NCBI GenBank assembly: GCA_964609855.1 | Contig: CAZSTB010000001.1 | Span: 27,854-91,853, forward strand | Reading direction: 5' to 3' | DNA: 64,000 nucleotides | DNA from: an uncultured Bdellovibrionales bacterium | Lineage (GTDB): Bacteria > Patescibacteriota > Minisyncoccia > Moranbacterales > GWC2-37-73 | Shown here: piece after piece, positions 22,151-62,000 of the stretch | Numbering within the stretch: the stretch's first letter is position 1 | Layout: the number at the start of each line of letters is the position of its first letter | Notes under the pieces: model-generated | What the model was told of the DNA's origin: nothing | What the model saw: the letters and a program-made list of their open reading frames with translations, nothing else | The model's database searches: none | Program-made: the position numbers and the translations under genes

Positions 22151-24487
22151 ATGAAACCAATCTTTGTTTCAACAAAATTTAAAAATATCTCCCGTCAAGG
22201 AAAGTGGAAACTGGCTGGAAAAATTGCGCTCTACTCATTCGGGGTCGGAATTCTTTTTGTGGTGGGTCTTTTCATTTATTTTGCAAAAGATCTTCCAAGT
22301 CCGACAGCTGTGAATAGTCGCATGGTTGCTGAGTCTACTAAAATTTATGACAGAACCGGTGAACATCTCCTTTATGATGTGCATGGCGAAGAAAAAAGAA
22401 CTATCATTGAATTCAATCAAATCCCGGATACGGTTAAATACGCAACTATTGCTTTGGAGGATCAGGAATTTTATTCTCATCATGGAATCAAGATCACTTC
22501 TATTATTCGCAGCGCACTTAAGGATATTATCAAGGGTGGAGCGAAGCAAGGAGGTTCGACTATTACGCAGCAACTTGTAAAGCAATCACTCCTGACTTCA
22601 GAAAAAACGCTGACAAGAAAAATTAAGGAAGTTATCCTTGCTATTGAAATTGAACAGCGCTATACCAAAGATGAAATCTTGGGAATGTACCTGAATCAAA
22701 TTCCTTATGGCTCTAACGCTTACGGTATCGAAGCGGCTGCCCAGACTTTTTTTAAGAAATCAGCAGGCGAACTCACATTAGCTGAAGCGGCTTTACTTTC
22801 AGCTCTTCCAAATGCCCCAACTTACTATTCTCCTTTTGGATTACATACTGATGCCTTGAAAGCTCGCCAAGAAACCGCACTCAGCCGCATGGCAAGTATC
22901 GGGTATATCACTGAAGAGCAAACAGCGGATGCGAAAAATGTTGACATTCTCGCAGGCATAAGTCCAAAAAATGACAATATTTCAGCGCCGCACTTTGTTA
23001 TGTATATCAAGGATTATCTGGTTAATAAATATGGTGAGCAATCCGTTGAGCAGGGTGGTCTAAAAGTTTATACTTCCTTGAATTGGGAAATGCAGCAAGC
23101 TGCTGAAAAAGCGGTAGCTGAAGGAGCGGAAAAAAATGCCGCAAATAAGGCTTCAAATGCCGCACTCGTAGCGATGGATCCAAAGACTGGGCAGATTTTA
23201 GCAATGGTCGGATCTAAAAATTATTTTGATAAAACCATTGATGGTCAAGTGAATGTAGCCTTGGCTAACCGTCAGCCAGGTTCTTCATTTAAGCCTTATG
23301 TTTATCTTACAGCCTTTACTAAGGGCTACACTCCTGAAACAATGCTTTTTGACGTACCGACAAGTTTTAGTACGGACGCTACTCAACAAGATTATACTCC
23401 TCAAAACTATGATGGAAGTTTTCATGGACCGTTACAAATGAAAAACGCACTTGCTATGTCATTGAATATTCCTGCCGTTAAAACTTTGTACTTAGCCGGA
23501 GTTAAGGATTCGATAAATTTGGCGAAAAGTTTGGGAATCTCAGGACTTAATCAGCCGGATAGATATGGTCTTTCGCTTGTGCTTGGTGGAGGGGAAGTGA
23601 CATTGCTTGATCATGTCAGTGCATACAGTACGTTGGCAAGTGGAGGCATGAAGCGAGATAGGGTATCAATTTTAAAAGTCGAAGACAAAAATGGAACTGT
23701 CCTGGAAAAGTATAGGGAGAGTAGTGGTGTGCGAGTAGTGGATGAGAAATACGTAGGAATGTTGGATTACATTATGTCTACGAATGATTTTCGTGCCCCT
23801 GTTTTTGGTGAAAATAATCCCTTTAAATTTACTGAGCGGGCAGTGGCTGCCAAGACAGGAACAACAAATGAATTTCGTGATGGTTGGGCGATGGGATATA
23901 CTCCCTCCATCGCGGCCGGAGTATGGGCTGGGAATAATGATAACTCTTCAATGAAAGTCGGAGCTGATGGTATTATTGTTGCGGCTCCTATATGGAGAGC
24001 ATTTATGAATTTTGCTTTAGGTAATAGCGCAGCGGATAAATTTCCTGAATATGAAAAAGAGGAGCTAGAAAAGCCGGTGCTGAATGGAGATTTTAATACT
24101 AAAGAAATTGAAGTTTGTGAAATAGATAAAGGTAAAAAGGATGGAGAATATTGTTTGGCAAATGACACCTGCCCAAGTGACGCAAAAGATAAAGTTACAT
24201 TTGGAGATGTGCATGATATTCTTTACTACGTTAACAAGGAAGATCCCAGGGGAGACCAACCAAAAGATCCAAGTGACGACCCTCAATACAAAAACTGGGA
24301 AAAAGGAGTCCAGTCTTGGCTTAAGGATAGCAAGGGTAAAAAAGAAGTTAAGGGACTTAGAAAACTTGAACCTGCTCCAACTGATGAATGTAAATCTGAT
24401 TACTTTTCAGCGAATGATAAGCCAAAGGAAGAGCCAAAACCAGAGCCTGCCCCTGTTGTAACTCCCGTTGCAACTCCGGTTCTGTAG
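22151..24487 (+). CDS. class A penicillin-binding protein (bifunctional glycosyltransferase/transpeptidase, PBP1A type)
   Basis: N-terminal TM anchor, glycosyltransferase motifs (EDQEFYSHHGI, GGSTITQQL), transpeptidase SxxK (SSFKP), SxN and KTGTT motifs. Pro/Glu-rich C-terminal tail. Confidence 0.9.
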   Translation: MKPIFVSTKFKNISRQGKWKLAGKIALYSFGVGILFVVGLFIYFAKDLPSPTAVNSRMVAESTKIYDRTGEHLLYDVHGEEKRTIIEFNQIPDTVKYATIALEDQEFYSHHGIKITSIIRSALKDIIKGGAKQGGSTITQQLVKQSLLTSEKTLTRKIKEVILAIEIEQRYTKDEILGMYLNQIPYGSNAYGIEAAAQTFFKKSAGELTLAEAALLSALPNAPTYYSPFGLHTDALKARQETALSRMASIGYITEEQTADAKNVDILAGISPKNDNISAPHFVMYIKDYLVNKYGEQSVEQGGLKVYTSLNWEMQQAAEKAVAEGAEKNAANKASNAALVAMDPKTGQILAMVGSKNYFDKTIDGQVNVALANRQPGSSFKPYVYLTAFTKGYTPETMLFDVPTSFSTDATQQDYTPQNYDGSFHGPLQMKNALAMSLNIPAVKTLYLAGVKDSINLAKSLGISGLNQPDRYGLSLVLGGGEVTLLDHVSAYSTLASGGMKRDRVSILKVEDKNGTVLEKYRESSGVRVVDEKYVGMLDYIMSTNDFRAPVFGENNPFKFTERAVAAKTGTTNEFRDGWAMGYTPSIAAGVWAGNNDNSSMKVGADGIIVAAPIWRAFMNFALGNSAADKFPEYEKEELEKPVLNGDFNTKEIEVCEIDKGKKDGEYCLANDTCPSDAKDKVTFGDVHDILYYVNKEDPRGDQPKDPSDDPQYKNWEKGVQSWLKDSKGKKEVKGLRKLEPAPTDECKSDYFSANDKPKEEPKPEPAPVVTPVATPVL

Positions 24488-43219: not shown

Positions 43220-43291
43220 TCCGGCGTAGCGCAGCGGTAGCGCAGTTGACTGTTAATCAATTGGTCGTAGGTTCGAATCCTACCGCCGGAG
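43220..43291 (+). tRNA. tRNA-Asn (anticodon GTT)
   Basis: Acceptor TCCGGCG/CGCCGGA. Anticodon loop CTGTTAA. T-arm GTAGG-TTCGAAT-CCTAC. Discriminator G. Confidence 0.85.
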
Positions 43292-44848
43292 CACAATAGG
43301 ATGAAGAGATGCGAAAGCGTCTCTTTTTCCTTTTATGGAGCCACTTTCAGCGAGTTCGAAAGTACTATTTATCCTAGGCATCCATTCTGACATGAATTCA
43401 AACCCTAAGGTGTAGTTTGGCCTGATTTTATCGGCATTTAATGTAAGGTTCGAAAAAATATGACTTAAGAGTAGTCTTTTTTCTTCAGTGCTTGCTTCTG
43501 GGCATTTGTAGATTTCAGATGCCTTTAGTGCGAGTTCATGAATAGCAAGTCCAGCTTCATAATAGGCAGCACGAGACTCTCCTAATTTTTTGAGAGCTAT
43601 CACTGCATCTTCTTTTTCTTTTGCAGATTCATCCATCATCTTTTGACAGAGTTCCATAGACATCTTTCCATCAAGCTTGTCCCTGTAGGCATTTTCATAG
43701 CGTTTGTCAGCGGTTTGAATGGTTCTTGTAAATTCATTTCTTCTTAGTGTATTGTGTTCTATCTCGTCGTCGTGACTTTCTCTCAATGCCTTCTCGAGAA
43801 TCTTGAGCACACGCTCATTCTTTGGGGCTACATTGTCAAATAGAGGAAAGAGTTGATCTTCTACCTTCTCTTGCCTGAGATAGGTCCTCTGGCTACATTT
43901 TTTGTAATGATTGCAATGGCCATACCAGTGCCCTTTTTGGGTTTCCCAAGTAATTAACCCACCACATTCGTCGCACTGAATTTTTGCCTTGAATACGGGC
44001 AGATGCTTTTTAAAGCTAGGGTTGGCTCTTTTGCGACTCATTATTCCTTGAACTGCGTCAAATAAGTCTTTGGATATGAGCGGTTCATGCTTACCTGGAC
44101 TCTGCACTCCATTCCAAGTAATGATGCCATAATAATAAGGATCGCTGAGTAGTTGATGTATTCTACTTATGACAATTTTTCCACCAGCAACACTACGAAG
44201 TCCCTCTTTAGTTATTGTCTCAGTGATTGCCTTAAGGGAATAATTCCCTGTAGCGTAAAGCTCAAATGTTCGCGCCATAAGTGGACCCATAACTTCATCA
44301 ATAACATGACTCTTGCGACCCTTTTCTCCAATAGTTTTATAACCAGCCTTGGCTCTTTGAGGAAATTCACCTTGAGCTATTTTTTCTTTTTGACCTTTCT
44401 TTACCTCTTCAGAAAGATTATCGATATAAAATCTCGCAATTGCAACTTTCATATTCCAAACAAGACTTTCATGAGCCTTTGTGTTTTTGTTTAATATAAA
44501 TGATTCTTTTACAAAATGTATTTCGCGTTCAGTGTTCTCAGTAATCCAATCACTTATTATGCCGGCATCTTTTGGGCTACGAGTAAGCCTATCTATTTTT
44601 TCACAAAGTATCGTTAATACATTGTTTTTTGAAGCATAATCAAGCATTTCATTGAAAGTTTTTCGTATTTGTTTTCCACTTGCTGATTCAGATATTTTGA
44701 AAATCTTCTTAATAGCAATCTCGTTTTTTTGTCCGTAGGCTTCCAATAGTGTCACTTGAGCATCTAACGAATACCCAGCATCTTCTTGTTCCTTGGATGA
44801 AACGCGGGCATAGATCACCGCTTTGTTGTTTTTGTTGGCATTTTCCAT
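43280..44848 (-). CDS. large serine recombinase (resolvase/invertase N-terminal catalytic domain + recombinase domain + zinc ribbon)
   Basis: AVIYARVSSKEQ catalytic-serine motif near the N-terminus. C-terminal Cys cluster (CDECGG...CNHYKKC). Stop overlaps the 3' end of tRNA-Asn. Confidence 0.85.
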   Translation of the reverse strand: MENANKNNKAVIYARVSSKEQEDAGYSLDAQVTLLEAYGQKNEIAIKKIFKISESASGKQIRKTFNEMLDYASKNNVLTILCEKIDRLTRSPKDAGIISDWITENTEREIHFVKESFILNKNTKAHESLVWNMKVAIARFYIDNLSEEVKKGQKEKIAQGEFPQRAKAGYKTIGEKGRKSHVIDEVMGPLMARTFELYATGNYSLKAITETITKEGLRSVAGGKIVISRIHQLLSDPYYYGIITWNGVQSPGKHEPLISKDLFDAVQGIMSRKRANPSFKKHLPVFKAKIQCDECGGLITWETQKGHWYGHCNHYKKCSQRTYLRQEKVEDQLFPLFDNVAPKNERVLKILEKALRESHDDEIEHNTLRRNEFTRTIQTADKRYENAYRDKLDGKMSMELCQKMMDESAKEKEDAVIALKKLGESRAAYYEAGLAIHELALKASEIYKCPEASTEEKRLLLSHIFSNLTLNADKIRPNYTLGFEFMSEWMPRINSTFELAESGSIKGKRDAFASLHPIVLRR

Positions 44849-45042
44849 ATGATTTTGATTTTATAAAGACGCTAAAGGGACGGTTCTGACTTACCCAACT
44901 AACCACGAGGATTGTCGGCAGAACCGCCCCTTTAGGGCGACAATATAAAGTCGTGGTATTTATAATTGGGTAAGTATCTACATTATACATTTTCTGCAGC
45001 AAAATAAAAGCCAAAAAGTAAACCAAAGTAAACAGATGATGG

Positions 45043-45483
45043 TTAACTTTCTCTTTTGTGACCTTGAATTTCTCTAAGTATCCTGTGAGCTTGTTGTTTT
45101 GCTGTTTTTGGGCTAAATCCCGCCAGCACCGCTGCTCTAGTAGCGTTTCCCCTTGAACTAATAAATCCATAAAGAAAAGAGAGTCTTTTCATTGATGGGG
45201 CATTAAACATAGGTAGTTGCTTTAATGAGCTATCATTCATTATCTCATCTGCTATATAATGAAATAATAGTCCGTGAGGCTTATGAAAAATTAAATCTCT
45301 TATAAATAGCGCTTCTTGCAATGTAAATTTAGGTGAAGGATTTCGTTTTTTATAATTCACGTTATCTGAAAGAAGATTAAGTATATTTATAAGTTCCTCG
45401 GTAGCAATAATGGCGCGTTTTTTCCTCATTTTTTTTATTTTCATTAGTGGTTTTTTATTGTACATATTGATCGATAACCTCAT
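45043..45483 (-). CDS. phage terminase small subunit-like HTH protein (Terminase_2/P27-like), tentative
   Basis: GNATRAAVLAGFSPKTAKQQAHRIL resembles the conserved HTH of small terminase subunits (GNATqAAi.AGYS.kTA.sqasrLL). Confidence 0.4.
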   Translation of the reverse strand: MRLSINMYNKKPLMKIKKMRKKRAIIATEELINILNLLSDNVNYKKRNPSPKFTLQEALFIRDLIFHKPHGLLFHYIADEIMNDSSLKQLPMFNAPSMKRLSFLYGFISSRGNATRAAVLAGFSPKTAKQQAHRILREIQGHKRES

Positions 45484-45664
45484 CTAATAATTTTGAAATA
45501 GTTATCTCTTGAAGTTTTGCTATCTCTTTTAATTTTTCATATCTGGTTTTTTCAATTCGTTCTTGTTGAGTGATCCTTTTTGGTTTTAATCTTTTCGAAA
45601 GGATTTTAAGTGCATTTTTATTGGCTTTCTTAGCTATTTTTTCCTGTTGAGTGAAATCAATCAT
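45455..45664 (-). CDS. small basic hypothetical protein (69 aa)
   Basis: Overlaps the upstream gene by 29 nt on the same strand. Lys-rich, likely DNA-binding. Confidence 0.3.
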   Translation of the reverse strand: MIDFTQQEKIAKKANKNALKILSKRLKPKRITQQERIEKTRYEKLKEIAKLQEITISKLLDEVIDQYVQ

Positions 45665-47072: not shown

Positions 47073-47144
47073 TTATTTATAATCTATGATAATCTGTAGT
47101 TACAATTAAATGCCTAAACTTCACGGATTCCCGCGGAGCATGGC

Positions 47145-47284
47145 AAAAAATACCGACTAAAGTATATCAAGCTCTCCATCCAGAGCACTTTAGTCGGTCG
47201 TGCGTCGAAAGGCGTGCGGGTGTCCGCAAGGACATCGCTGGTGGGGAGCTTTATGTTTTCCACCAAAAAAAATCCGACTAAAGA
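47145..47284. other. GC-rich structured element flanked by 18-bp direct repeats (aaaaaataccgactaaag / aaaaaaaatccgactaaag); candidate ncRNA or MITE
   Basis: Inverted copy actttagtcgg at 47187-47197 forms an 11-bp stem with 47151-47161. GNRA hairpin tgtcc-GCAA-ggaca at 47221-47234. A spurious 77-aa ORF overlaps it. Confidence 0.35.
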
Positions 47285-47407
47285 AATGAAAAAAAGAATA
47301 AACTTATCTCGCATAGTATTTTTCGCTATGGCTTCTTTCGAAGTCATGTTTACAACCTTTTAAGGTTGTTTTTTTGTCGTTAATTATTTTTACTTAATAA
47401 AATTATT

Positions 47408-48476: not shown

Positions 48477-48506
48477 TTGACATTATACGCATTCAATGCG
48501 TATAAT
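48477..48506 (+). promoter_or_regulatory. consensus sigma70 promoter (TTGACA-18-TATAAT) with embedded perfect 11-1-11 palindrome ttatacgcatt-c-aatgcgtataa (48483-48505); candidate auto-operator; drives leaderless transcript starting at ATG 48513
   Basis: -35 at 48477-48482, -10 at 48501-48506. ATG 7 nt downstream of the -10. The palindrome spans the spacer and the -10 box. Confidence 0.5.
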
Positions 48507-48512
48507 GTAGAA

Positions 48513-51500
48513 ATGAAATACAACATCGGAAAACTTATAAAAACAGAAAGAAAAAAGCATGGATGGGACCAGGCTGAATTGGTTCGTCGCCTGGGTGGGT
48601 CGATACGTCAGCAGGCTATCAGCGGTTGGGAGCGTGGTGCTTCTCGACCTACTCGCGAAACCATTCATCTTTTAAGTAGAGAATTTGAAATTGAAGAAAA
48701 AATCCTTTTAGAGAAAGCTGGGTACATAAGTGGAGTGGAAAGGATTCCCAGAAAACCAGTTAGACCACTGCTTACTACACTTCCAATTGCTGATCTTACT
48801 CCTTATCAATTCGAACAATTTTCAGCGGATTTAGCTTCTTATTTGAACCCGGAAAAAGGTGTTTCAATTGCTCGCTATGGGTCCACTGGCCATAAGCAGG
48901 AAGGTGCTGATATTATAGTTACAAAAAGCGGTCGCAAGAAAGCTATTTATCAATGCAAGAGAGTTAACCAATTTGGACCAGCCGCAATAAAAAAAGCAGT
49001 TGATGATACAAATCTCGTTGCAGAAAATTATTATTTGCTTCTTACGCGGGTAGCCACTCCTCAAGCTCGCGAGGAAATCCAAAAATATGAAAAATGGATA
49101 CTTTGGGATATTGAAGATATTTCACAACGAGTTCGTGAATTGCCAGTAGATAAAGCTCTTCGCTTAGTTGAAACATATTTCCCAGGTGGTTGGAGGGAAC
49201 AATTTCTTGGTATTGATGATTCCGGACCGTGGACTTCTGTTGAGGATTTTTATCGTCGTTTTAATGGTGACCAAATCTTTTCACATACATGGGGGCTGGT
49301 TGGTCAAGAAAAAATTATTGATGAAATCAAACTTTTTTATGCGGATGCTCAGCAAAAATTAGGTGTTATATCAGGGAGAGGAGGCAGCGGAAAGACTCGT
49401 CTTTTGCGCGAGTTAGCGAAAATAGCTCAAGAGGATTTTGAATACAATGTTCGTTTTTTAGGTAATGGTCAAAAACCAACTTTAAAAAATTATGAGTTAT
49501 TGCGGGATATTTCTAAACTTTTAATTATAGTAGATGATGCTCATGAGCGTTCAGATATTGCTCAAATCATTGATGGTATCCATGGAGCACAACCTGAAGC
49601 AAAAATTATTTTAGCACTACGTCCATATGGCTTTTCTCAACTATCTTCCGATTTGCGCCGTATAGGTGTGCATCCCTCTGAATTTCCAAGCTGGGAAATT
49701 CAGGAAATAAAATTTCAAGATGCAGAAAAATTAACAAAAGAAGTGCTAGGTGACAAGGCTGACTCTAGAATAGTTTCACGTATAGCTCATATGACAAAAG
49801 ATTGCCCATTGTTGACGGTTGTTGGTGCTGGCTTATTTAAGCGCGGTGAATTAGATGTTCTACAGTTGGAATCTGACGATCAAATAAAAGAAGAAATCTT
49901 ATCCAGATTTAGAGATACATTTATTGAAAGTTCAAGCCAAGGAGATTCAACCATATTAAATACCGTGCTAAATACCATTTCCGCGCTGCAACCTTTTCCG
50001 CTTAATGATCCTGATTTTCGCAAAACATTGGAAAAACTGTCCAATAAACATTGGGATGAGTTGATACCATATATTCGAAGATTAGAAGAAAAGGGAATTT
50101 TATTAAAAAGAGGTAATGTAGTCAGAATCGTTCCGGATTTATTAGGAGATGTTATATTAGCTGAAGCGTGTTTTGATAACAGTGGAAGTACCGGTTACAT
50201 AGAAAGGCTTTTTGCTGATTTGTCTGATATTCCTTTGCAGCATCTCATTATAAATACTGCCCGAGTTGACTGGCAGGTAAATACATCCAAGAGAGGACAA
50301 TCTCTTGTTGGATTTCTTTGGCCTAAAATTATTTCTGAATTTGAATCATCGGACTGGGGTGGTCGCTTAGTAATAATGAAGCTTTTGAAAAAAGTTGCTT
50401 TTTTTCAGCCAGAACAAACGCTATCTCTTGTAAATATAGCAATGACAGAAATTTCCGAAGATTCTGATGAAAAAACACGAGATGATATTTTTTCTTTGAA
50501 TAATGAGCATGTTATGCACGCTATTCCAGAAGTATTGAAACAAGTTGCTTATAATTTCGATTTTTTGAAAGAAGCTGCTGATTTACTTTGGGAGCTCGCC
50601 AGAAAAGATGATAGAAGAACAAATTCTTATCCAGATCATCCTATTCGTATTCTTCAGGATTTGGCTTCTTATTCACCATGGAAACCAGCTTATTTCAATG
50701 AGAAATTAGCAGATATTGCAATAAACTGGCTAAACGAAGAAAAAAAATCAATCCATTCTCCATTTGATATTCTTGAAACATTGCTTGCTACTGAAAGTTC
50801 AGAAACTTTATCTGAAGGACCTACGCTTACATTTAGGCCTTTTGCAGTAAGATTAGAGGCTGTACAGAAGATTAGAGATTCTATTTTGCAGGTGGCTTTT
50901 TTGCAGGCAAACACAAAAGAAATTGGAAAAGCAGCTCGAGCAGTGGATGCTATAAGTAAGGGAATAAGTTACCCCATGGGCATGTTTAATAGGATTCCTT
51001 CTGAGGCGGAGCGTTCTCATTGGACTCCTTATTTTGTAAAAACTATTTCAGAGCTTGGAGAGCTTGCAAGGATGCCAGAATTAGATCCTACTATTGCACT
51101 TGAAATACGCAAGGCTTTGCAATGGCACAGGATGTATTCTAAAACAGAAACAAAAAATGCTGCCCTGGAAGCGCTCAAAGGTATGCCAGAAGGAATTGAG
51201 CACCAAATGGCTTTAGCGCTCCACTCTGGCTGGGGAGATTTAGTTTTTGAAAGAATCCGTGATTTCAAATTAAGAGATGAGCGAAGAGAAGCTTGGTATG
51301 AGGAGTTAGCTGAAAATCTAGGTCGCACTTATTCTGATCAAGAAATTGCAGATCTGTTGGAAAGTCGTCTAAATGCACAAAAAGAAGTATCGGATAGTCA
51401 ATCGCATCCAGGTCCTTTCATGTGGGCGCTAGTAAAAGAAAACCCTTCTATTGGGGAAATTATCTGTGAGAAAGTTATGGAGAATAATGACTCAGTTTTT

Positions 51501-52616
51501 CTAGCTGTTCTTCCTATAGTGCTTTCGCAGATGATGGAAAATGATTCAGCGAAAAATATACTTGTAATCCGTAAGCTTGTTGCAACTGAAAATCTCTCTG
51601 TAATTCGTTCGGTCGTTCATGCTTTTGGATGGAATCGTGGTGGGCGAGACGAACTAAATGAGGAAGAATTTGATATTTTATGTGTATTGGCCAAACATTC
51701 AGATCAGCATATTCGAAGTTCTTTGATAAGAGTTGTTCATTATATTTCTTCTAAGCATCTTGATAAAGCAATAAAACTTGTTTCTCTTATTGAATTTGGA
51801 GATTCTTTACAGGTGGCAAGTGAAGTATTTTCCATTTTCGGAAAGCATGGCGTTATGAAGCTAGAGGACTTGGGTTCGGATGAAATTGAAAAAATATGGC
51901 AGCAATTAAAAATAGTTTCCTCCATTGATGATCATTCCATTATGGAGTTCCTATTCGAGGCATCAGAAAAAAATCCAGATAAAGTGTTAGAATTGCTCAA
52001 GGGACGGATTGAATATGGAGAAATGCATCCAGAAATTAAAGATTTTAATGAACTGCCGTTTCATTGGGATGGCAATTTTCGATTTCGTGAACATCCAAGC
52101 TTTAAACAGTTACTTAGAGAAATTCGTGATTGGATGGCCGAGAAGCCAGATTCTTGGGGGAGGATGATGGAAGGTGCAAAACTATTTCAAAATGTATCTG
52201 GAGAATTTGATGACATTGTTATTGGTGTACTTGAAGAAGTTTTATATTCTGGAACAGATGGTCAACTAGAAGCTGTCAGCTACATATTGCGTGAAGCGCC
52301 AAAAAATTTGATATTGGATAATCCTGCTTTTGTAGAAAGAGTGTTGGAGATAGCTAATAATCGAGGAGAGGAGAAGTTGAGAAACATCAGTTTCAGTCTT
52401 ATATCCGCTGTAGAGAATGGCGTAAGGAGTGGAACACTAGGAGAGCCTTTTCAGGCAGATGTTGAGCAAAAAGAAAAAGCATTAAGGATTGCGGAGTCCC
52501 TTGTCTCTGGTACTTTGGTGGAAAAATTTTACCGAACACTTGCAGAATCAGCCGAGAGAAACATGAATTGGCATGCCGAAAGTAATGAGAAAATGCAGGA
52601 CTCTCGCGAATGGTAA
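48513..52616 (+). CDS. Avs/bNACHT-like antiphage STAND NTPase: N-terminal HTH(XRE) + Mrr-like PD-(D/E)xK nuclease + P-loop STAND NTPase + about 900-aa helical repeat sensor region (about 1367 aa)
   Basis: HTH: IGKLIKTERKKHGWDQAELVRRLGGSIRQQAISGWERG. Mrr_cat-like: FEQFSADL...GADIIV...YQCKRV. Walker A GRGGSGKTRLL and Walker B LLIIVDDAHE. Long all-helical C-terminus. ORF track start 48477 is a TTG inside the -35 box; ATG 48513 preferred. Confidence 0.7.
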   Translation: MKYNIGKLIKTERKKHGWDQAELVRRLGGSIRQQAISGWERGASRPTRETIHLLSREFEIEEKILLEKAGYISGVERIPRKPVRPLLTTLPIADLTPYQFEQFSADLASYLNPEKGVSIARYGSTGHKQEGADIIVTKSGRKKAIYQCKRVNQFGPAAIKKAVDDTNLVAENYYLLLTRVATPQAREEIQKYEKWILWDIEDISQRVRELPVDKALRLVETYFPGGWREQFLGIDDSGPWTSVEDFYRRFNGDQIFSHTWGLVGQEKIIDEIKLFYADAQQKLGVISGRGGSGKTRLLRELAKIAQEDFEYNVRFLGNGQKPTLKNYELLRDISKLLIIVDDAHERSDIAQIIDGIHGAQPEAKIILALRPYGFSQLSSDLRRIGVHPSEFPSWEIQEIKFQDAEKLTKEVLGDKADSRIVSRIAHMTKDCPLLTVVGAGLFKRGELDVLQLESDDQIKEEILSRFRDTFIESSSQGDSTILNTVLNTISALQPFPLNDPDFRKTLEKLSNKHWDELIPYIRRLEEKGILLKRGNVVRIVPDLLGDVILAEACFDNSGSTGYIERLFADLSDIPLQHLIINTARVDWQVNTSKRGQSLVGFLWPKIISEFESSDWGGRLVIMKLLKKVAFFQPEQTLSLVNIAMTEISEDSDEKTRDDIFSLNNEHVMHAIPEVLKQVAYNFDFLKEAADLLWELARKDDRRTNSYPDHPIRILQDLASYSPWKPAYFNEKLADIAINWLNEEKKSIHSPFDILETLLATESSETLSEGPTLTFRPFAVRLEAVQKIRDSILQVAFLQANTKEIGKAARAVDAISKGISYPMGMFNRIPSEAERSHWTPYFVKTISELGELARMPELDPTIALEIRKALQWHRMYSKTETKNAALEALKGMPEGIEHQMALALHSGWGDLVFERIRDFKLRDERREAWYEELAENLGRTYSDQEIADLLESRLNAQKEVSDSQSHPGPFMWALVKENPSIGEIICEKVMENNDSVFLAVLPIVLSQMMENDSAKNILVIRKLVATENLSVIRSVVHAFGWNRGGRDELNEEEFDILCVLAKHSDQHIRSSLIRVVHYISSKHLDKAIKLVSLIEFGDSLQVASEVFSIFGKHGVMKLEDLGSDEIEKIWQQLKIVSSIDDHSIMEFLFEASEKNPDKVLELLKGRIEYGEMHPEIKDFNELPFHWDGNFRFREHPSFKQLLREIRDWMAEKPDSWGRMMEGAKLFQNVSGEFDDIVIGVLEEVLYSGTDGQLEAVSYILREAPKNLILDNPAFVERVLEIANNRGEEKLRNISFSLISAVENGVRSGTLGEPFQADVEQKEKALRIAESLVSGTLVEKFYRTLAESAERNMNWHAESNEKMQDSREW

Positions 52617-52649: not shown

Positions 52650-53393
52650 ATGAATGGATACAAAATTTTAGCAATAGACGAAACTGGTAAAGCAAGTTTA
52701 ACGCATAAATCAAAAAATTTTATACTTTCAGGAATAATTATCCCGGAAAGCTTTAAGCCGCAGTTGAAAAAAATGATGTGCAAATTAAAAATAAAACATT
52801 TCAATGATGAAGATCTGGTGTTTCATTGTAGAGATATGCTTCGAAAAAAAGGACCATTTGCTTGTTTAAGAGGAGATAAAAATAAAGAAATGCTTTTTTG
52901 GTCTGATTTTATAAGTATCCTAAATTCAGATAAAATTTCGTTGGCCTTCGTTATTACTGATAAGGAAAATGCAAAAAAATTAAATTGGAATGAAATAGCG
53001 ATACTAAGAAAAGCTTATAAAAAGATGCTTGAGCAATTTGTTGTGCAACATTTAAACCATAAAACAAACGGAAAAATAATAGTCGAATCTGATTCATCGC
53101 AAGACAAATTTTTGATTGAAGCCAATGCGAGGTTGCAGAGTGCGGGCATTCCTTCGGAAGGAATTAGTGGTTCAGATTATCGTGCTAAAATTACGTCATT
53201 AAGTTTAGTTAATAAACTAAATTTCGATGACGATATACAAATAGCAGATAGCTTAGCACTGATGGCGGATACGGTTTATGAAATGAAGATTGGCCGTCAT
53301 TCAAGGCGTGTTAATAAAGTTCAGCTCATGATGAAAAGACTCATAGAAAGAAAAATGAAAAATAAATTAGGTATTTTTGAGATTCTTTCATAA
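52650..53393 (+). CDS. DUF3800-family protein (defense-island associated)
   Basis: N-terminal YKILAIDETGK...NFILSGIII resembles the DUF3800 (IyIDESG...FvlaGvi) motif. ESDSSQDKFLIEAN central motif. Confidence 0.45.
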   Translation: MNGYKILAIDETGKASLTHKSKNFILSGIIIPESFKPQLKKMMCKLKIKHFNDEDLVFHCRDMLRKKGPFACLRGDKNKEMLFWSDFISILNSDKISLAFVITDKENAKKLNWNEIAILRKAYKKMLEQFVVQHLNHKTNGKIIVESDSSQDKFLIEANARLQSAGIPSEGISGSDYRAKITSLSLVNKLNFDDDIQIADSLALMADTVYEMKIGRHSRRVNKVQLMMKRLIERKMKNKLGIFEILS

Positions 53394-53397
53394 CAAA

Positions 53398-53516
53398 AGA
53401 GTCGGCCATGGCTATCCGCGCTTTACCGACTCTTATATAATATACTACGCTTTTTTTGAAAAAAAATAACAAAAAAATCGGCCATGGCTATCCGCGCATA
53501 TACCGACTTCTTATAC
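53398..53516. repeat. two roughly 38-bp GC-rich direct repeats, each an internal hairpin (agagtcgg-N20-ccgactct), spaced 77 bp
   Basis: tcggccatggctatccgcgc identical at 53402-53421 and 53479-53498. Each copy is preceded by an A-run. Shares the ataccgact core with the 47145 element. Confidence 0.6.
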
Positions 53517-53661: not shown

Positions 53662-53690
53662 TTGACATTTTTGCCAAAAAATGCTATCAT
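53662..53690 (+). promoter_or_regulatory. consensus sigma70 promoter TTGACA-17-TATCAT upstream of the high-GC two-gene cassette
   Basis: -35 at 53662-53667, -10 at 53685-53690. About 105 nt upstream of ATG 53796, which has a GGAGGAAG SD. Confidence 0.5.
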
Positions 53691-53795: not shown

Positions 53796-55052
53796 ATGAA
53801 AAAGAGTCAGGTTAATGTTTTTGATAAAGGAACGCCGGATTACGTGATAGCTCACGCAGTCAGGCAGCAGAAAAGAGGACGTCGCCCTTCAATGGCCTTT
53901 CTTGGTGAAAGGAATCCGGAGAAGGCTTTGGCTCTAGCAAAACGTTTCAAGGGCTGCAACATGGTAGTTTCCCAGGATGGTGAAAAGCAATGGAAGGTTA
54001 CGTTTAACGGAGCCATCGCTGCACAGATCCACATGGACTACCAGAACCAGGCTGACAAGGTTGTTCTCATGAACGACGACAAGCGCTGCCAGCGGTTCGT
54101 CAAAGAGCTCGTCCTCTCGCATGCAGTACAGTTCGTTATGCAGCGGGGACCGATGCCGGCAGCACTTCTAAGGGTTGTTCCTGAACGCGCGCTGGAAGAA
54201 TATACCTGCGAAAACCTGATAAGCTTTGGCAAGATTCCCAGTAGTATTTTCGCGATGAGCGACAAAACCCTGGGCTCATATCTTTCCCAGTTCGTCACCG
54301 TTGTTGAAGGAAAGTATTCCAGCCCCGAACAAATGCTCACCTGCCTGTTGATGGAAATCTACGAGAAGAAAGGTATCCTTCTGGGTATCCGGGACGCTCA
54401 GTGGTCACGCATGGACGATGGTCATATCGTCGCTACGTTCGAAATAAAAAGCGAACAAACCTTCAAGGTGTGGAATGGTAACGACGCAAGCAACATGTTT
54501 CATTTCGTCGCACCTTACCACCCGTCGAGGAACGGCAAGAAAAGCGTCTGCCTGATCAACGGCAGCACCGATTATTACATCAGGGGAAGCGAGGCCGGAA
54601 TCAGAAGAGTGCTTTCTCCTGAAGAATCGAGACCTGTGAAGGAAGGATTGTTTCTTTCTTCTACCTGGTCAAAAATCAACCATCCGTTCTACGCCGAGGG
54701 TAAGACCTTGGGCATCGAGTTTTCGGCCGTGCTCTGCATGTCGAAAACCGGCTACCAGACGCTCTACGAGTTACTGCTTGCAGCAATGAATCAGGACAAT
54801 CTGTTTGTAGCGGTCAGTGGAGGGTTTGGCTCTCCTTACGATTATGCACAGAACGTCCTGAGTCGCAAAGGCATCCGTTCGCCTGCAGGCAAACAAGGGG
54901 CTCACGAAGTTCGTGGCTCCGAAGAGGACTGCGTCTGGGAACACGAGGTTCTCAAGTCGGAAGGCGTTCTGGACAAAAGTGTCGCTCCGGACTGGTTTTA
55001 CCACGAAGGGTGGCTCAAGATTTTCGAAGGAGAAGAAAAGAAGTTCAACTAA
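53796..55052 (+). CDS. hypothetical protein (418 aa) in about 50% GC cassette; no recognisable domain
   Basis: Strong SD (GAGGAGGAAGTCGCAATG). GC content far above the window average. Antisense ORFs in the same region are judged artefacts of the high GC. Confidence 0.6.
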   Translation: MKKSQVNVFDKGTPDYVIAHAVRQQKRGRRPSMAFLGERNPEKALALAKRFKGCNMVVSQDGEKQWKVTFNGAIAAQIHMDYQNQADKVVLMNDDKRCQRFVKELVLSHAVQFVMQRGPMPAALLRVVPERALEEYTCENLISFGKIPSSIFAMSDKTLGSYLSQFVTVVEGKYSSPEQMLTCLLMEIYEKKGILLGIRDAQWSRMDDGHIVATFEIKSEQTFKVWNGNDASNMFHFVAPYHPSRNGKKSVCLINGSTDYYIRGSEAGIRRVLSPEESRPVKEGLFLSSTWSKINHPFYAEGKTLGIEFSAVLCMSKTGYQTLYELLLAAMNQDNLFVAVSGGFGSPYDYAQNVLSRKGIRSPAGKQGAHEVRGSEEDCVWEHEVLKSEGVLDKSVAPDWFYHEGWLKIFEGEEKKFN

Positions 55053-55081
55053 ATATCAACTTCAAATGGAGGTATAGGAAC

Positions 55082-56074
55082 ATGACAAGCACACAGAAGG
55101 TTTTCGTCCCCGAAGAGCACTTCCGGGAAGTTCCCGACAGTTTTTCGGGAGAATCCAACATCGTTAGTGTCGAGTCCCGAGTTTGCTCCAACGGCATCAT
55201 CCTTGATAACCTCAAGGAAGTCGAGTGCGCACTCAGGATCCACAACGGGGAAATGCTTCTTACTCCGGTGTCTAGCACGTTTACCAATATGGATCTGATC
55301 GGCAATATGTTCAAGTCGGCCGGCCCCATGGGAGCAGGACTCGCAGCTATGGCCAGTCAAACGCTGATGAAAGGCAAGGACTTTGTCGGCACGATGATGG
55401 CGGAAGCGAGATGTAACCTTGCCACTACTGGCAAATACCATCGCAGTTACGACTACGACGCCATGGGAACGAATTTCCTGAAAACCTCGGTAACTGTTGC
55501 CAGGGTGGAAAGCAAGTTCGTTCTTAATATCAGTGGCTCCCGGGTCGAAACAGATCTGAGTGTACTCCTTGGGAAAAGGGTTGCACTTTCGAGCGCGGTT
55601 ATCTACGCAAATCTGAGTGTTGTCGACGAATGGTGGTATAATCTGAACCTGAAAAAGGTTCTCGGCGACATTGGCTATCTTGATCCCGATTTCGAGCCTA
55701 CCTGGCCGCAACTTGCGCAGGTTCTGGCCTCTGAAGGTCACCAATTCCGGTTACCGATTCTGAAGGATGGTGTTCCTCTCGATCTCTTGATCAGCGTGGA
55801 TTATTCCAGCTATCGGTACCCTTCGGAAGAAGACAAGCGGGCAAGTAAGGACCTGACCAGAGCAATCGGCAGTAACGTTGCCGGCGCCACCTGGAACGCC
55901 TATCGCCACCAACGCGAGGAAGCAACCAATGAAGACAGAAAGCTTCAGATAACTGTTGCACATCACGGCAGGGGCTATGGTTCCTCGCCGGTAATCGATC
56001 CCGCGTTCACTGATGCTTTGGCAACAGTGGCAAGGGAGATCGAAGAAAAGCTCATCAAGAAAGTAGTCGCTTAA
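55082..56074 (+). CDS. hypothetical protein (331 aa), second gene of the high-GC cassette
   Basis: ATG 55082 preceded by AAATGGAGGTATAGG SD (the ORF-track start 55010 overlaps the upstream gene). Followed by a strong terminator. Confidence 0.55.
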   Translation: MTSTQKVFVPEEHFREVPDSFSGESNIVSVESRVCSNGIILDNLKEVECALRIHNGEMLLTPVSSTFTNMDLIGNMFKSAGPMGAGLAAMASQTLMKGKDFVGTMMAEARCNLATTGKYHRSYDYDAMGTNFLKTSVTVARVESKFVLNISGSRVETDLSVLLGKRVALSSAVIYANLSVVDEWWYNLNLKKVLGDIGYLDPDFEPTWPQLAQVLASEGHQFRLPILKDGVPLDLLISVDYSSYRYPSEEDKRASKDLTRAIGSNVAGATWNAYRHQREEATNEDRKLQITVAHHGRGYGSSPVIDPAFTDALATVAREIEEKLIKKVVA

Positions 56075-58976: not shown

Positions 58977-59276
58977 ATGTACGCAGCACTGGAGTTGGTG
59001 TTTCTTTTTTTGGCTGTACTGTTCATCGTGACGCAAATGCTTATGCCGGCTTTAACTGGCGGGCAATACTTCTGGATTTTCCGAAAGGAACAGAAGGCGA
59101 TTAAGAGCAAGGAGGCTGAGCTTTCCGCACTGAGGGAACGTGAAAAGGCAATTGATCTTGACTCGGCCATCGCTGCAGGAAAAGCAAGGCTTAGGCAGAA
59201 AGCAGAAAGCGTAGGCCAGATGAAAGAAGCCATCACAGAGGAAGAAAAAGGCAAGATCCCTGAAGAAGAGAAATAA
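58977..59276 (+). CDS. small membrane-anchored coiled-coil protein (99 aa); NfeD-like partner of the downstream SPFH gene (tentative)
   Basis: GGAGGAGG SD. One N-terminal TM then a charged coiled-coil. TTGACA-17-TATGCT promoter at 58808-58836. Confidence 0.5.
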   Translation: MYAALELVFLFLAVLFIVTQMLMPALTGGQYFWIFRKEQKAIKSKEAELSALREREKAIDLDSAIAAGKARLRQKAESVGQMKEAITEEEKGKIPEEEK

Positions 59277-59312
59277 CTTTCCGCCTAGGCGGACATCAAG
59301 GAGGAGGACACG

Positions 59313-60611
59313 ATGGAAAGATTCGACGCAGATGATGCAATTGACAAGGCGACAGAACTGGGAAGGGCAGTGAAGCAGAAACTTCCGGGCAAACGAGGCA
59401 TGACTATCAGCCTCGTTTGTCTGGCACTGTTGTTCGTGCTCTTTGCGATCAAGGGCAAGATCTATTACGATCTGGCTCAAAACGAGATACTGTTCATCAA
59501 GGAAATGGGGTCCGGCAAGGTCTACATCCACAAGAATGCAGGCTGGAAGTGGGTCCGTTTCGGTGAGCCGACCATGATTAAGAAGAGCTATACGTTCTGG
59601 TTCTCCAATAAGGCTGACCAGGGCAAGAAGAATGACGAGAGTATCAAAGCGCGCTTCAATGATAACGGCCACGGGAACATCTCCGGATCCATCCGGATAA
59701 ACTCGCCACTGAACGATAAGCAGCTGTTGGATATATACTCTCAGTTTAAGACCCAGGAAGCCATCGAGCACGAGATCATCAGAACGACGCTCGAGAAGGC
59801 GGTTTATTTCGCCGGCCCACTGATGTCGTCCACTGAGAGCGCTTCCACCAAGAGGAACATGCTTCTTAGCTATATCGAAGATCAGGCCCAAAGTGGGATC
59901 TACAAAACTGTATCGGAGGAAGTGAAGGTTAAAGATACTCTGACTGGCGCCGATAAGACCATGACTCAGGTAAGACTGCTTACCGATGAAAAGAAGCCTA
60001 ATGGCATTGCCAGACACGAGCAATCGCTCCTGGCGAAGTTTGGCTTCACATCATCAAACCTGAGCATCAATGAAATTGTCTACGACGATGAAGTTGAGGC
60101 CCAGATCAAGGCCCAGCGGGAATCGATCATGTCGGTACAGACTTCCATTGCCGCGGCGAAGAAAGCCGAGCAAGACACGATCACCACTGAAGAAAAAGGA
60201 AAGGCTACAGCAGCTAAAGCCAAGTGGGCACAGGAAACGCTCAAGGCTACGGCGGTCACCAAGGCTGAGCAGGATCGCGAGGTGGCCCGTATCGACAAGG
60301 AAGCAGCTGAGTTTACCAAGCAAAAGCTGATCTTGGAAGGTCAGGGTGAAGCCGAAAAGCGACGTCTGATCATGGCAGCTGACGGAGCCCTGGACAAGAA
60401 GCTCAAGACATATGAGAACGTCATGGGTCGCGCTGTCCAGGAATTCGCCAAGCAGAAATGGGTGCCTGAAATCGTGATGGGTGGGGGATATAGTGGCAGC
60501 GCAGGCGCAGGCACTCCACTTTACGACATGATGAACATGATGTCCCTGTCGGCTATGAAAAGCATTGGCCTTGACATGGGCATCCCCATCGGCAAAAGCA
60601 CCAAGAAGTAA
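59313..60611 (+). CDS. SPFH/band-7 (flotillin/prohibitin-like) domain membrane protein
   Basis: N-terminal TM. Central SPFH-like region. C-terminal Ala/Glu/Lys-rich coiled-coil (KAEQDREVARIDKEAAEFTKQKLILEGQGEAEKRRL), flotillin-like. Confidence 0.65.
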   Translation: MERFDADDAIDKATELGRAVKQKLPGKRGMTISLVCLALLFVLFAIKGKIYYDLAQNEILFIKEMGSGKVYIHKNAGWKWVRFGEPTMIKKSYTFWFSNKADQGKKNDESIKARFNDNGHGNISGSIRINSPLNDKQLLDIYSQFKTQEAIEHEIIRTTLEKAVYFAGPLMSSTESASTKRNMLLSYIEDQAQSGIYKTVSEEVKVKDTLTGADKTMTQVRLLTDEKKPNGIARHEQSLLAKFGFTSSNLSINEIVYDDEVEAQIKAQRESIMSVQTSIAAAKKAEQDTITTEEKGKATAAKAKWAQETLKATAVTKAEQDREVARIDKEAAEFTKQKLILEGQGEAEKRRLIMAADGALDKKLKTYENVMGRAVQEFAKQKWVPEIVMGGGYSGSAGAGTPLYDMMNMMSLSAMKSIGLDMGIPIGKSTKK

Positions 60612-60635
60612 GCACGAAGTATTTTCACAACCGAA

Positions 60636-60670
60636 AAGGGCTGGCCGAGAAGTTTCGGCCAGCCTCTTTT
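60636..60670 (+). terminator. rho-independent terminator (ggctggccga-gaagtt-tcggccagcc + tctttt)
   Basis: 10-bp perfect GC-rich stem. Confidence 0.65.
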
Positions 60671-60689
60671 AACAAAAGGAGGCAATCTG

Positions 60690-61376
60690 ATGAAATTGCG
60701 AAAACTGATTTTGTTTTGTCTGGCTCTGCTTGTTTTTGCAGGGTGCAGGTCTGATATCATCGAAAAAGTCGCAACTGGCGCGGCTCTTAGCGAAGATGAT
60801 AAAAAAGAGTACGCTGAGTATACTAAGGATGCCAAAAGCAAGGCAGACTTTGACACAGCAGTCGCTGAATACAAGAAAAAGATCGCCGAAAATAGTTATT
60901 CGCCGCCCACTGAAGAACAAAAAAAACTCGGAGTCAGGGAGTATCATGGCCAAGAATTGAAGATTTCACCGGTAGTGACAGATCAGATCGGTTTTATCGA
61001 AGGTTCCAGGGTTAAGACGCCCGACGGTGAAGGATACTTCGTCGGAATCGATAAGGACGGCGACGGATGGTTTCACCTTGATGGCAAAACATCCCTGCAT
61101 TATTACAAAGGCGGGAAAGATGAATACATCAAGAAAGGATTCATGCTCATCGCATCTCCAGCAGAGCAGCAAGAATTGGTACTTATCGCGGAAAAGAGTG
61201 CAGAAGAACAAAATGCTCTTCCTTTGGTTCCAGCGGCACCGGCAGTCAAGCCCAATCCCGCAGCTCCGAAGATCGCGAAAGCCGCTTCGGCAACTTCGGT
61301 CGTTGCAGATCTGCAGGTAGGCGAGATTGAAAAACTCCCACCGATCCCACCGATCCCGCCATTAAAAGAGAAGTGA
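60690..61376 (+). CDS. lipoprotein (228 aa) with Pro/Ala-rich C-terminal tail
   Basis: AAAGGAGG SD. Signal peptide with LVFAGC lipobox. C-terminal PPIPPIPPLKEK. Confidence 0.55.
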   Translation: MKLRKLILFCLALLVFAGCRSDIIEKVATGAALSEDDKKEYAEYTKDAKSKADFDTAVAEYKKKIAENSYSPPTEEQKKLGVREYHGQELKISPVVTDQIGFIEGSRVKTPDGEGYFVGIDKDGDGWFHLDGKTSLHYYKGGKDEYIKKGFMLIASPAEQQELVLIAEKSAEEQNALPLVPAAPAVKPNPAAPKIAKAASATSVVADLQVGEIEKLPPIPPIPPLKEK

Positions 61377-61388
61377 TTTAAAACCTAA

Positions 61389-61420
61389 TAGAGGCTGGCT
61401 GAAGCATCAGCCAGCCTCTA
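61389..61420 (+). terminator. strong hairpin (tagaggctggctga-agca-tcagccagcctcta), terminator-like without T-run
   Basis: 14-bp perfect stem. Confidence 0.45.
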
Positions 61421-61449
61421 ATCATATCTTGCATTGATGCGAAAGGAGG

Positions 61450-61821
61450 ATGGTCATGGCACATTCAACAAAGAGAGAGGCTCTGATGGAGATCGTAAAT
61501 CTCATCGTTCAGAATTCTGGCAAAAGAGCATCGCTTGCCTTCCAGGAGGAAGATACGATGACTGAGAAAGTCGAGGATGCTGCACACTTCATCAAGGTCG
61601 ACGGAAAGAGGATTGGCCGTGACATTGGGATGTACGGCTTCATGGGTGATGGCCCAGTTGGCTGGGAAAGAACACTGGCCATGTTCCTGGAAGAAATTCT
61701 CTTTCCAGTTAAAGGTCTCGGCCTCACTGAAAGCTACAATGCTGCCGCCGAGAAATTAAAGGAGCTCGGCCATGAGGTCTATTCCACCGACCTTCATGCA
61801 GAGTGGGATGGGCTGTTCTAA
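61450..61821 (+). CDS. hypothetical protein (123 aa)
   Basis: GAAAGGAGG SD. GC-richer composition. Confidence 0.45.
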   Translation: MVMAHSTKREALMEIVNLIVQNSGKRASLAFQEEDTMTEKVEDAAHFIKVDGKRIGRDIGMYGFMGDGPVGWERTLAMFLEEILFPVKGLGLTESYNAAAEKLKELGHEVYSTDLHAEWDGLF

Positions 61822-61957
61822 GATTCGGCATCGCACCGGATCAACTAACGGCTATGAGTTTATACAGAAATGTATATCTCATGGCCGTTTTATTTTTTAT
61901 AAAAAGCTCTATCTAAAATCAGGGCTCTTTAACTATGAAAGAATTTCGAACTTGGCG

Positions 61958-62000
61958 CAAACAACAAAAAGAGGCTTATTTAAGCCTCTTTTTGTTGTTT
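61958..62000. terminator. bidirectional terminator: perfect long palindrome caaacaacaaaaagaggcttatt|taagcctctttttgttgttt
   Basis: About 20-bp arms, A-run and T-run on either side. Confidence 0.6.

Follow-up and report, generated by a model that had tools for sequence, protein, structure and literature searches.

A single gene in a 64,000-nucleotide stretch of an uncultured Moranbacteria genome (contig CAZSTB010000001.1; the window hereafter means this whole stretch) encodes a protein that, in our analysis, is likely to be an Avs-like (antiviral STAND-like) abortive-infection sensor with a built-in transcriptional governor. A sequence-only reading of the same DNA had proposed that the protein joins an XRE-family helix-turn-helix (HTH), an Mrr-like nuclease, a STAND NTPase and a long repeat region, and Pfam searches together with a model of the solenoid confirmed this four-module architecture. 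HTH_3 (PF01381) matched residues 9-61 with 37.2 bits against a gathering cutoff of 23, Mrr_cat (PF04471) matched residues 93-205 with 28.7 bits against 21, and nSTAND_NTPase5 (PF25199) matched residues 266-371 with 38.2 bits against 34, all three of the expected profiles being found above gathering score. The motifs GADIIV...YQCKR, GRGGSGKT and IIVDDAHE were likewise all present in the protein. The positions of the modules and of the other features discussed here are collected in Table 1.

Conservation was judged in two family alignments of 36 and 106 sequences. The predicted catalytic residues E101, D133 and Q147 of the nuclease were invariant among the 106 sequences and K149 was at least 90% conserved. 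Invariance in the same alignment extended to G290, G293 and K294 of Walker A and to D341 of Walker B, with D342 invariant or at least 90% conserved. In the HTH, residues Q20, Q33, Q34, S37, W39 and E40 were invariant or at least 90% conserved in the alignments of 36 and 106 sequences, and the solenoid held many invariant residues in the family alignments, such as W603, H709, K724 and W739. By sequence, the nearest solved relatives of the HTH among the matches listed in a PDB profile search were the P22 C2 and 434 repressors and ICEBs1 ImmR; weak matches were also obtained to the MqsA, HipB and HigA antitoxin families and to C.BclI.

The AlphaFold2 model of residues 1-640 had a mean predicted local distance difference test score (pLDDT) of 90.3 and a predicted template modelling score (pTM) of 0.77. 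It comprised a five-helix HTH (pLDDT >90) and an alpha/beta nuclease, joined by a linker of low confidence (residues 70-90 approximately), and then a module of P-loop, helical and winged-helix domains. The best PDB fold match of this part was EcAvs4 in complex with a phage portal protein (8dgf_B, E 3.9e-9, 591 aligned columns), followed in order by EfAvs5, RuvB, the plant NLR RPP1, SAMD9, Apaf-1 and NOD2. The remainder of the protein was modelled with a pLDDT of 93.6 as a HEAT/ARM-like alpha-solenoid of about 770 residues (approximately 600-1367), shorter than the roughly 900 residues of helical repeats claimed earlier, since the rest of that span forms the helical and winged-helix part of the STAND module. 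Fold matches of the solenoid were generic only (karyopherin, CAND1, SF3B1 and PP2A-A). The C-terminus therefore folds as a HEAT/ARM solenoid in the model, and no C-terminal DNA-binding domain of the kind expected of a STAND regulator was found in it.

A word-indexed search recovered 159 relatives, nearly all of 1355-1400 residues, aligning over their full length at 31-61% identity and showing the same Pfam pattern; those with a source annotation are labelled 'helix-turn-helix domain-containing protein' or 'transcriptional regulator with XRE-family HTH domain'. The HTH, described earlier as unusual for an Avs-type protein, is indeed present; it is no one-off, being part of the constant architecture of a whole family. 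A scan of 185,579 species genomes (one genome per species; the window genome lies outside the GTDB species representatives scanned) yielded 58 homologous loci, of which the majority were from Actinomycetota and the others from Saccharibacteria, other Patescibacteria, Chloroflexota, Alpha- and Gammaproteobacteria, Melainabacteria and one Halobacteria metagenome-assembled genome (MAG). Cultured carriers included Ralstonia solanacearum, Rhizobium etli IE4771, Xanthomonas albilineans CFBP2523, Arthrobacter, Streptomyces actuosus and Nocardia. Given that 58 loci are scattered over 185,579 species, the family is sporadic and not core, and its members often lie beside integrases, recombinases or a relaxase, or on megaplasmids, which disposes of the possibility that the gene is universally conserved. 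Homologues were found on a Rhizobium etli plasmid and on Ralstonia solanacearum megaplasmids, one plasmid copy being annotated 'restriction endonuclease'. Among the 136 nearest neighbours of the homologues, the recurrent families were Phage_integrase (5), Resolvase/Recombinase (3) and N6_N4 methyltransferase (3), with TrwC relaxase, DDE transposase, Cas1 and KfrA as singletons. Clustering of 1036 flanking open reading frames (ORFs) revealed no conserved partner gene, and the DUF3800-like gene downstream in the window is not conserved with the family.

Beyond this family, the NTPase and sensor are shared with proteins whose N-termini differ. When residues 240-1367 were compared exhaustively by phmmer with 1.84 billion representatives, 1716 matches were obtained at E ≤ 1e-3 and 844 at E ≤ 1e-30. 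Distant relatives (27-30% identity over about 1100 residues) kept the NTPase and solenoid and had the N-terminus exchanged: for Mrr_cat without an HTH in P0315, P0320 and P0302, for DUF4365 in P0317 (3e-34), for a calcineurin-like phosphoesterase (Metallophos) in P0367, and for an HNH-like motif, seen by eye and without a Pfam match, in P0333. Several others had non-enzymatic N-termini. Such a constant NTPase-sensor chassis with exchangeable effectors is a signature of Avs-type immune receptors. Together with the EcAvs4 fold match, it upholds the Avs-like half of the earlier label 'Avs/bNACHT-like'. The NACHT half falls, as NACHT (PF05729) had no match at E ≤ 1 in the window protein, was recorded for one listed homologue only, and no bNACHT model of PADLOC was matched. 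Because no Avs or bNACHT model of PADLOC v2 matched, 'Avs-like' refers here to how the protein works and not to membership of a named type.

Some individual relatives showed features of their own. P0289 (locus L049, Amycolatopsis sp. GM8, 9400-10090) has the same NTPase and sensor with an N-terminus of only about 50 residues, and carries a motif, GxQxGDxNTMNI, that is seen again where the preceding ORF ends; it may serve as an adaptor for an effector encoded by a separate gene. A homologue 35% identical over residues 79-1358 lies at a contig end binned as a haloarchaeon (L045, the Halobacteria MAG), and a weaker partial match was found on the haloarchaeal plasmid NZ_CP101457.1 (Natronobeatus ordinarius), which may reflect cross-domain transfer or a binning error. 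The Melainabacteria MAG MFD09603.bin.1.256 carries two gene copies (L046 and L048) with the same operator and start. In L048 the HTH frame is broken after about 60 codons, either as a pseudogene or through an assembly error; the locus was rejected as a control lacking HTH and dyad, given its retained operator and frameshifted HTH. Similarly, P0027, P0028, P0050 and P0078 were rejected as HTH-less homologues, being truncated gene calls that start inside the linker between HTH and Mrr domain.

The start of the window gene could be fixed by comparison. On the plus strand, the mechanical ORF opens with a TTG at 48477 and ends with the stop at 52616. In most of the 58 loci the residue aligned to M1 is the start, and several loci have no other in-frame start upstream; we therefore take ATG 48513 as the true start and reject TTG 48477, which is merely the opening triplet of the -35 hexamer. 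Two independent metagenome contigs carry the identical gene with the same neighbours, and on both of them its start was called at this ATG. As claimed earlier, a consensus promoter precedes the gene: TTGACA-18 nt-TATAAT is the sole 12/12 sigma-70-type match in 47-54 kb of the window. The stated distance to the start was also correct, 6 nt separating the -10 hexamer from the ATG, whose A is the seventh base past it. No Shine-Dalgarno sequence fits between the -10 box and the ATG. The palindrome reported over this promoter exists and is longer than the 11-1-11 first described, a perfect 14-1-14 repeat that takes in the second half of the -35 hexamer and reaches two bases past the -10. Within the whole window, its 15-bp core, ACGCATTCAATGCGT, is found a single time. 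A leftward promoter-like site (TCTACA-18-TATAAT, 10/12) lies at 48511-48482 on the minus strand because the palindrome carries TATAAT on both strands; no minus-strand gene was found directly upstream.

We then compared the 70 nt before the start codon in 54 homologous loci, scoring the dyad out of 10. Across loci of 35%-73% guanine-plus-cytosine (GC) content, much the same layout emerged, in which a dyad ACRCA-N5-TGYGT shares its last T with the first T of the -10 box and the start codon follows 6-7 nt further on. The -10 box appeared as TATAAT, TATGAT or TACGAT, and the -35 was often TTGAC. A strict dyad (N3-7 spacer) was present within 100 nt upstream in 31 of the 54 loci, compared with 8 matches in 1.04 Mb elsewhere in the same loci. 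The N5 dyad scored at least 8 in 41 loci, at least 9 in 35 and 10 in 25, and began at -26 or -27 in 31. For 937 other gene starts in the same loci, the corresponding proportions were 2.0%, 0.2% and none. In 41 of the 54 loci, a TANNNT hexamer preceded the start codon by 6 or 7 nt, which puts the canonical +1 on the codon's first base or one base earlier. In approximately 10 actinobacterial loci a second dyad was found 31 bp, or three helical turns, upstream.

The dyad also changes in step with itself and with the HTH. In 11 loci both arms are altered jointly, from ACGCA/TGCGT to ACACA/TGTGT, a symmetry that would be expected of dimer binding. The recognition helix reads QQ-x-[VI]-S-x-W-E, and residue 35 is its third position. 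Wherever base 3 of the half-site is not G (12 loci, 11 of the ACACA type and one ACCCA), this position holds T or S without exception, and all 22 proteins with A35 are paired with an ACGCA or ACGTA half-site. A neighbour-joining tree built without the HTH indicated at least 2-3 independent switches of state, for example at L006 inside a QQT subclade, and at L036, L044, L040 and L052 against L029. GC content is not the cause of the pattern, since L006 (65% GC) has ACACA and L040, L044 and the window (36-39% GC) have ACGCA. At four HTH-less Mrr-STAND loci (L061, L062, L063 and L064/L065) the dyad was not found, the best score near the start being 6/10; these loci, identified through the search of representatives, served as the HTH-less control. 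Two of them, L061 (1770-1805) and L064 (1046-1118), have no dyad but retain a -10 box, either TATAAT or GATAAT, at a distance of six nt from the ATG; the leaderless layout thus seems older than the HTH, and the operator appears to have come with it. Taken together, the cross-phylum comparison strongly supports autorepression from a putatively leaderless promoter, and lends strong backing to the earlier proposal that the palindrome is the candidate operator of the protein's own HTH.

The following mechanism would be consistent with these results. At rest, the two HTH domains of a dimer, held on flexible linkers, would bind the 15-bp dyad ACGCA-N5-TGCGT; RNA polymerase would be excluded from the occupied site, because the dyad spans the spacer and the first base of the -10 box. 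Such negative autoregulation may keep a potentially toxic nuclease at a low, constant level independent of copy number. The transcript would begin at or beside the A of the ATG and be leaderless, and translation would thus proceed without a Shine-Dalgarno sequence. For the STAND step the model is the ligand-driven activation of Avs3 and Avs4 that Gao et al. are said to have described in 2022. By analogy with these proteins, the HEAT-like solenoid would bind a conserved molecule of the invader during infection, the STAND NTPase would then drive oligomerisation dependent on nucleoside triphosphate (NTP), and the clustered Mrr-type nuclease domains would cut DNA, so that phage replication is halted and the cell is lost. 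Since promoter, operator, leaderless start and repressor domain all lie within about 4.14 kb, the unit may be self-expressing and self-limiting in diverse hosts, and such portability fits the scattered distribution over phyla and megaplasmids. A bolder version, which we hold tentatively and consider rather doubtful, is that HTH, operator and leaderless start form a host-independent expression cassette, that oligomerisation pulls the HTH off the operator and so couples nuclease firing to feed-forward derepression, and that the sensor target lies outside any Avs family. If true, a plug-and-play cassette would let a toxic NLR-like receptor establish itself after transfer between phyla, possibly between domains.

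Several observations weigh against an Avs-like, self-repressed sensor. PADLOC v2 models of Avs1-5, bNACHT and any other system had no match in the protein beyond the HTH (HTH_VI, 28 bits) and the P-loop (P-loop-only matches, below 16 bits). The PADLOC scan of the window neighbours gave no defence match and no known defence gene beside the STAND gene, and defence genes were few among the 136 nearest neighbours of the homologues (raw counts: 3 DNA methyltransferases, 1 Cas1 and 2 mad2). No homologue was found in 50,697 phage records, a result that does not bear on defence either way but offers no sign of a link to phages. Conservation of the sensor extends over its full length, which is unusual for an arms-race receptor; moreover, the solenoid had no specific structural relative among known Avs sensors in the PDB fold search, so the ligand need not be a phage protein. 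As for the operator, 13 of the 54 loci have no good dyad at the expected place, T35 is also paired with ACGCA in 6 loci, and the co-variation of residue 35 with base 3 is partly confounded by phylogeny. Finally, a literature search of limited coverage found no paper describing an HTH-Mrr-STAND family.

The 13 HTH-bearing loci without a good dyad would be accommodated if the dyad were the site of some other factor of the host or element, or inherited promoter conservation, with the HTH put to another use such as tethering the nuclease to DNA. The leaderless -10 layout of the HTH-less L061 and L064 points the same way, in that part of the upstream conservation predates the HTH. Conservation of the site across Actinomycetota, Patescibacteria and Proteobacteria, however, cannot be put down to a host factor, and the symmetric changes of both arms, the failure to find the dyad at the four HTH-less relatives and the co-variation of half-site base 3 with a residue at the start of the recognition helix speak for dimer binding by the HTH itself; we regard this explanation as unlikely. 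If the protein were instead a STAND-class regulator of transcription resembling AfsR/SARP-LAL or MalT, the HTH would be its output domain, the solenoid would sense a cellular or environmental ligand and the Mrr-like domain would be structural or inactive. Known STAND regulators are indeed built from a DNA-binding domain, a STAND NTPase and helical repeats, the clearest predicted DNA target is a promoter, and a sensor conserved over its whole length would suit a regulator. Defence and non-defence STAND clades are, moreover, interspersed, according to Lee et al. 2026. An inactive nuclease is difficult to reconcile with E101, D133, Q147 and K149 being invariant or nearly so in 106 sequences, and the relatives exchange the N-terminus for other enzymatic effectors (DUF4365, Metallophos, HNH-like), not for other DNA-binding domains. 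No neighbouring target gene is conserved, the dyads in the loci of about 24 kb occur only at the gene's own promoter apart from the 8 stray strict matches in 1.04 Mb, and the best fold match is Avs4, which together make a regulator decidedly unlikely.

The nuclease could alternatively belong to an NTP-dependent type IV or Mrr restriction enzyme that senses DNA, for instance modified DNA, with the HTH aiding DNA binding and the palindrome being incidental or a self-protection site. The Mrr_cat domain, the plasmid homologue annotated as a restriction endonuclease and the recurrence of DNA methyltransferases as neighbours (3/136) agree with this. We consider it very unlikely, given that the NTPase is an nSTAND5 with a winged helix and a 770-residue HEAT solenoid and not a McrB-type AAA+ or helicase motor, that no methyltransferase partner is conserved, and that a dyad fixed on the gene's own -10 box indicates regulation and not target recognition. 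An addiction module of toxin-antitoxin type, in which an XRE antitoxin-like domain is fused in cis to a nuclease toxin and stabilises mobile elements, would account for the weak matches of the HTH to MqsA, HipB and HigA and for the members found in integrative elements and on megaplasmids. A fused and equally stable 'antitoxin' is nevertheless incapable of post-segregational killing, addiction alone leaves the NTPase and the 770-residue sensor unexplained, and a constant sensor with swapped effectors is what immune receptors show; this last alternative is highly improbable.

Table 1. Positions of the features of the window discussed in the text, counted from its first base.
Feature	Position	Strand	Basis or remark
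tRNA-Asn	43220-43292		abuts and slightly overlaps the 3' end of the serine recombinase gene
Large serine recombinase gene, 522 aa	43283-44848	-	stop end overlaps the 3' end of tRNA-Asn
Terminase-small-like (terS-like) fragment	45046-45483		
Arc-like repressor	45458-45664		
LOOT RNA (Rfam RF03000)	47111-47236	+	84.7 bits against a gathering score of 46.4
-35 hexamer TTGACA	48477-48482	+	sigma-70-type match; TTGAC-like hexamers at this spacing in many homologous loci
Predicted operator, perfect 14-1-14 palindrome ACATTATACGCATT C AATGCGTATAATGT	48480-48508	both	sequence inspection
Conserved operator core ACGCA-N5-TGCGT	48487-48501	both	half-site centres 10 bp apart
-10 hexamer TATAAT	48501-48506	+	first T is the last T of the operator core
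HTH-Mrr-STAND-solenoid coding sequence, 1367 aa	48513-52616	+	ATG at the predicted transcription start; homologue starts
XRE-family HTH, residues 1-70	48513-48722	+	HTH_3; recognition helix Q33-Q34-A35-I-S-G-W-E
Mrr-type PD-(D/E)xK nuclease, residues 93-205	48789-49127	+	Mrr_cat; predicted catalytic E101, D133, Q147, K149
STAND NTPase module, residues ~262-600	49296-50312	+	nSTAND_NTPase5; helical and winged-helix domains after the P-loop
Walker A GRGGSGKT, residues 288-295	49374-49397	+	motif
Walker B hhhhDD, residues 337-342	49521-49538	+	motif
HEAT/ARM-like alpha-solenoid, predicted ligand sensor	50310-52613	+	model; one beta-hairpin at about residues 761-778

The gene had been placed in an island integrated at tRNA-Asn, next to a DUF3800 gene. 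A tRNA-Asn abutting a serine recombinase gene is indeed present upstream, and 43220-45664 looks like a phage- or satellite-like integrative element. After the recombinase, a low-GC stretch (0.32-0.33) holds the terS-like fragment, the Arc-like repressor and the LOOT RNA; a 77-aa mechanical ORF at 47114-47347 on the minus strand is probably no gene, since the LOOT RNA overlaps it. A search of the region gave no convincing att-type direct repeats or right island border; att repeats are not expected for a serine recombinase. An island at tRNA-Asn is plausible but weakly supported, with no definable borders. PADLOC and PHROGs scans of the window neighbours limited the phage-like matches to the integrase, the terS-like fragment and the Arc-like repressor. 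The DUF3800 assignment is weak, the downstream gene scoring 20.1 bits against a cutoff of 21.

Past this DUF3800-like gene, a 32-nt direct repeat, ATAACAAAAGAGTCGGCCATGGCTATCCGCGC, occurs at 53390-53421 and 53466-53497 (94% identical, 76 nt apart), and an 11/12 promoter-like site lies beyond it at 53662-53690. Two patches at 54000-56000 and 59000-62000 are GC-rich (0.49-0.52, compared with about 0.38 elsewhere) and may be separately acquired DNA. The ORFs at 53796-55049, 55010-56071 and 60690-61373 within them had no Pfam or PADLOC match, and the ORF at 59313-60608 had only a weak Band_7 match. In the 1-43000 segment, PBP1A (e.g., 22151-24484) is 79% identical to proteins of Candidatus Moranbacteria MAGs, and its named best matches are all from Moranbacteria or Parcubacteria. 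These matches place the window in Candidatus Moranbacteria and set aside a Firmicute host, for which the 38% GC content had seemed to speak.

Antiviral STAND proteins with Mrr nucleases are already well studied, and the NTPase has its own Pfam family. In the literature searched, within its limited coverage, we found neither an Avs-like family with a constant N-terminal HTH of phage-repressor type nor cross-phylum conservation of operator, promoter and leaderless start; both appear to be new. The survey of Lee et al. 2026 counted 589 STAND clades, 198 of them defence-associated, and its main text mentions nSTAND clades and no HTH-bearing family. The family described here appears to regulate in cis, with repressor domain, operator, promoter, a start free of a ribosome-binding site, effector and sensor in one 4.1-kb unit, a layout that offers an explanation of how a toxic single-gene defence system could move between very different hosts. 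To our knowledge, how bacteria set the dose of STAND immune receptors that endanger the cell itself is largely unknown, and regulation of such receptors is usually assigned to separate proteins such as WYL, CapW or BrxR-type regulators. Furthermore, residue 35 and base 3 of the half-site appear to be matched, so that a swap of specificity can be envisaged in which A35T is paired with a change of ACGCA to ACACA, and the Avs-like repertoire gains an uncharacterised sensor. Genomes of the candidate phyla radiation (CPR), to which Moranbacteria belong, are typically very small, and a 4.1-kb immune receptor is kept in this one.

Among known systems, the closest in overall plan is Avs4 (EcAvs4, 8dgf), in which, as in other Avs proteins, one polypeptide begins with an Mrr-type nuclease, continues with a STAND NTPase and ends in a large sensor of helical repeats. 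Effectors swapped on a constant chassis and a single gene without a conserved partner are further points in common. Unlike Avs proteins, however, the present family has no sequence match to Avs models, and no Avs chain at E ≤ 1 was among the best 60 of 118 PDB sequence matches in the profile search. Its NTPase belongs to nSTAND_NTPase5, its HEAT/ARM-like sensor has no specific similarity to solved Avs proteins, and an XRE HTH stands ahead of the nuclease with a conserved operator on its own promoter.

The MalT, AfsR/SARP-LAL and GutR regulators resemble the family in combining a DNA-binding domain, a STAND NTPase and helical repeats in one protein, but their output domains are of LuxR or SARP type and they have no nuclease. 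Since the catalytic residues are conserved and enzymatic effectors are swapped in relatives, we take the nuclease as the output and the HTH as an accessory governor. This HTH has its nearest solved relatives in P22 C2, 434 cI and ICEBs1 ImmR, with which it shares a dyad that begins with AC and half-sites one helical turn apart. The 434 repressor opens its recognition helix with a QQ pair, as here, the half-site centres of the 434 and P22 repressors are 10 bp apart, as here, and the lambda cI mRNA from P_RM is leaderless. Unlike the lambdoid repressors and ImmR, the protein has no C-terminal dimerisation or autocleavage domain, carrying 1300 residues of nuclease, NTPase and sensor in its place, and no lysogeny context.

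The controller (C) proteins of restriction-modification (R-M) systems offer the nearest regulatory parallel, as they have an XRE HTH, bind palindromic boxes directly upstream, often in two copies, are made from leaderless mRNA and control a toxic nuclease (PMC2632904). As with C.PvuII and C.AhdI, the dyad here lies upstream of the gene's own start, the transcript is leaderless by prediction, and the genes are frequently horizontally transferred; in the present family the dyad is at -26/-27 and the -10 box 6-7 nt from the start (41/54 loci). C proteins, however, are small and separate, and mainly activate a weak promoter without a clear -10 from a site approximately 17-18 nt from the start. In the present family the dyad ends about 11 nt before the start and overlaps the near-consensus -10 box of a promoter that often has a -35 as well, so simple repression is predicted and not activation. 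Moreover, no R-M or methyltransferase partner is conserved, and the HTH forms the first 70 residues of 1367, fused to the very nuclease that it would control.

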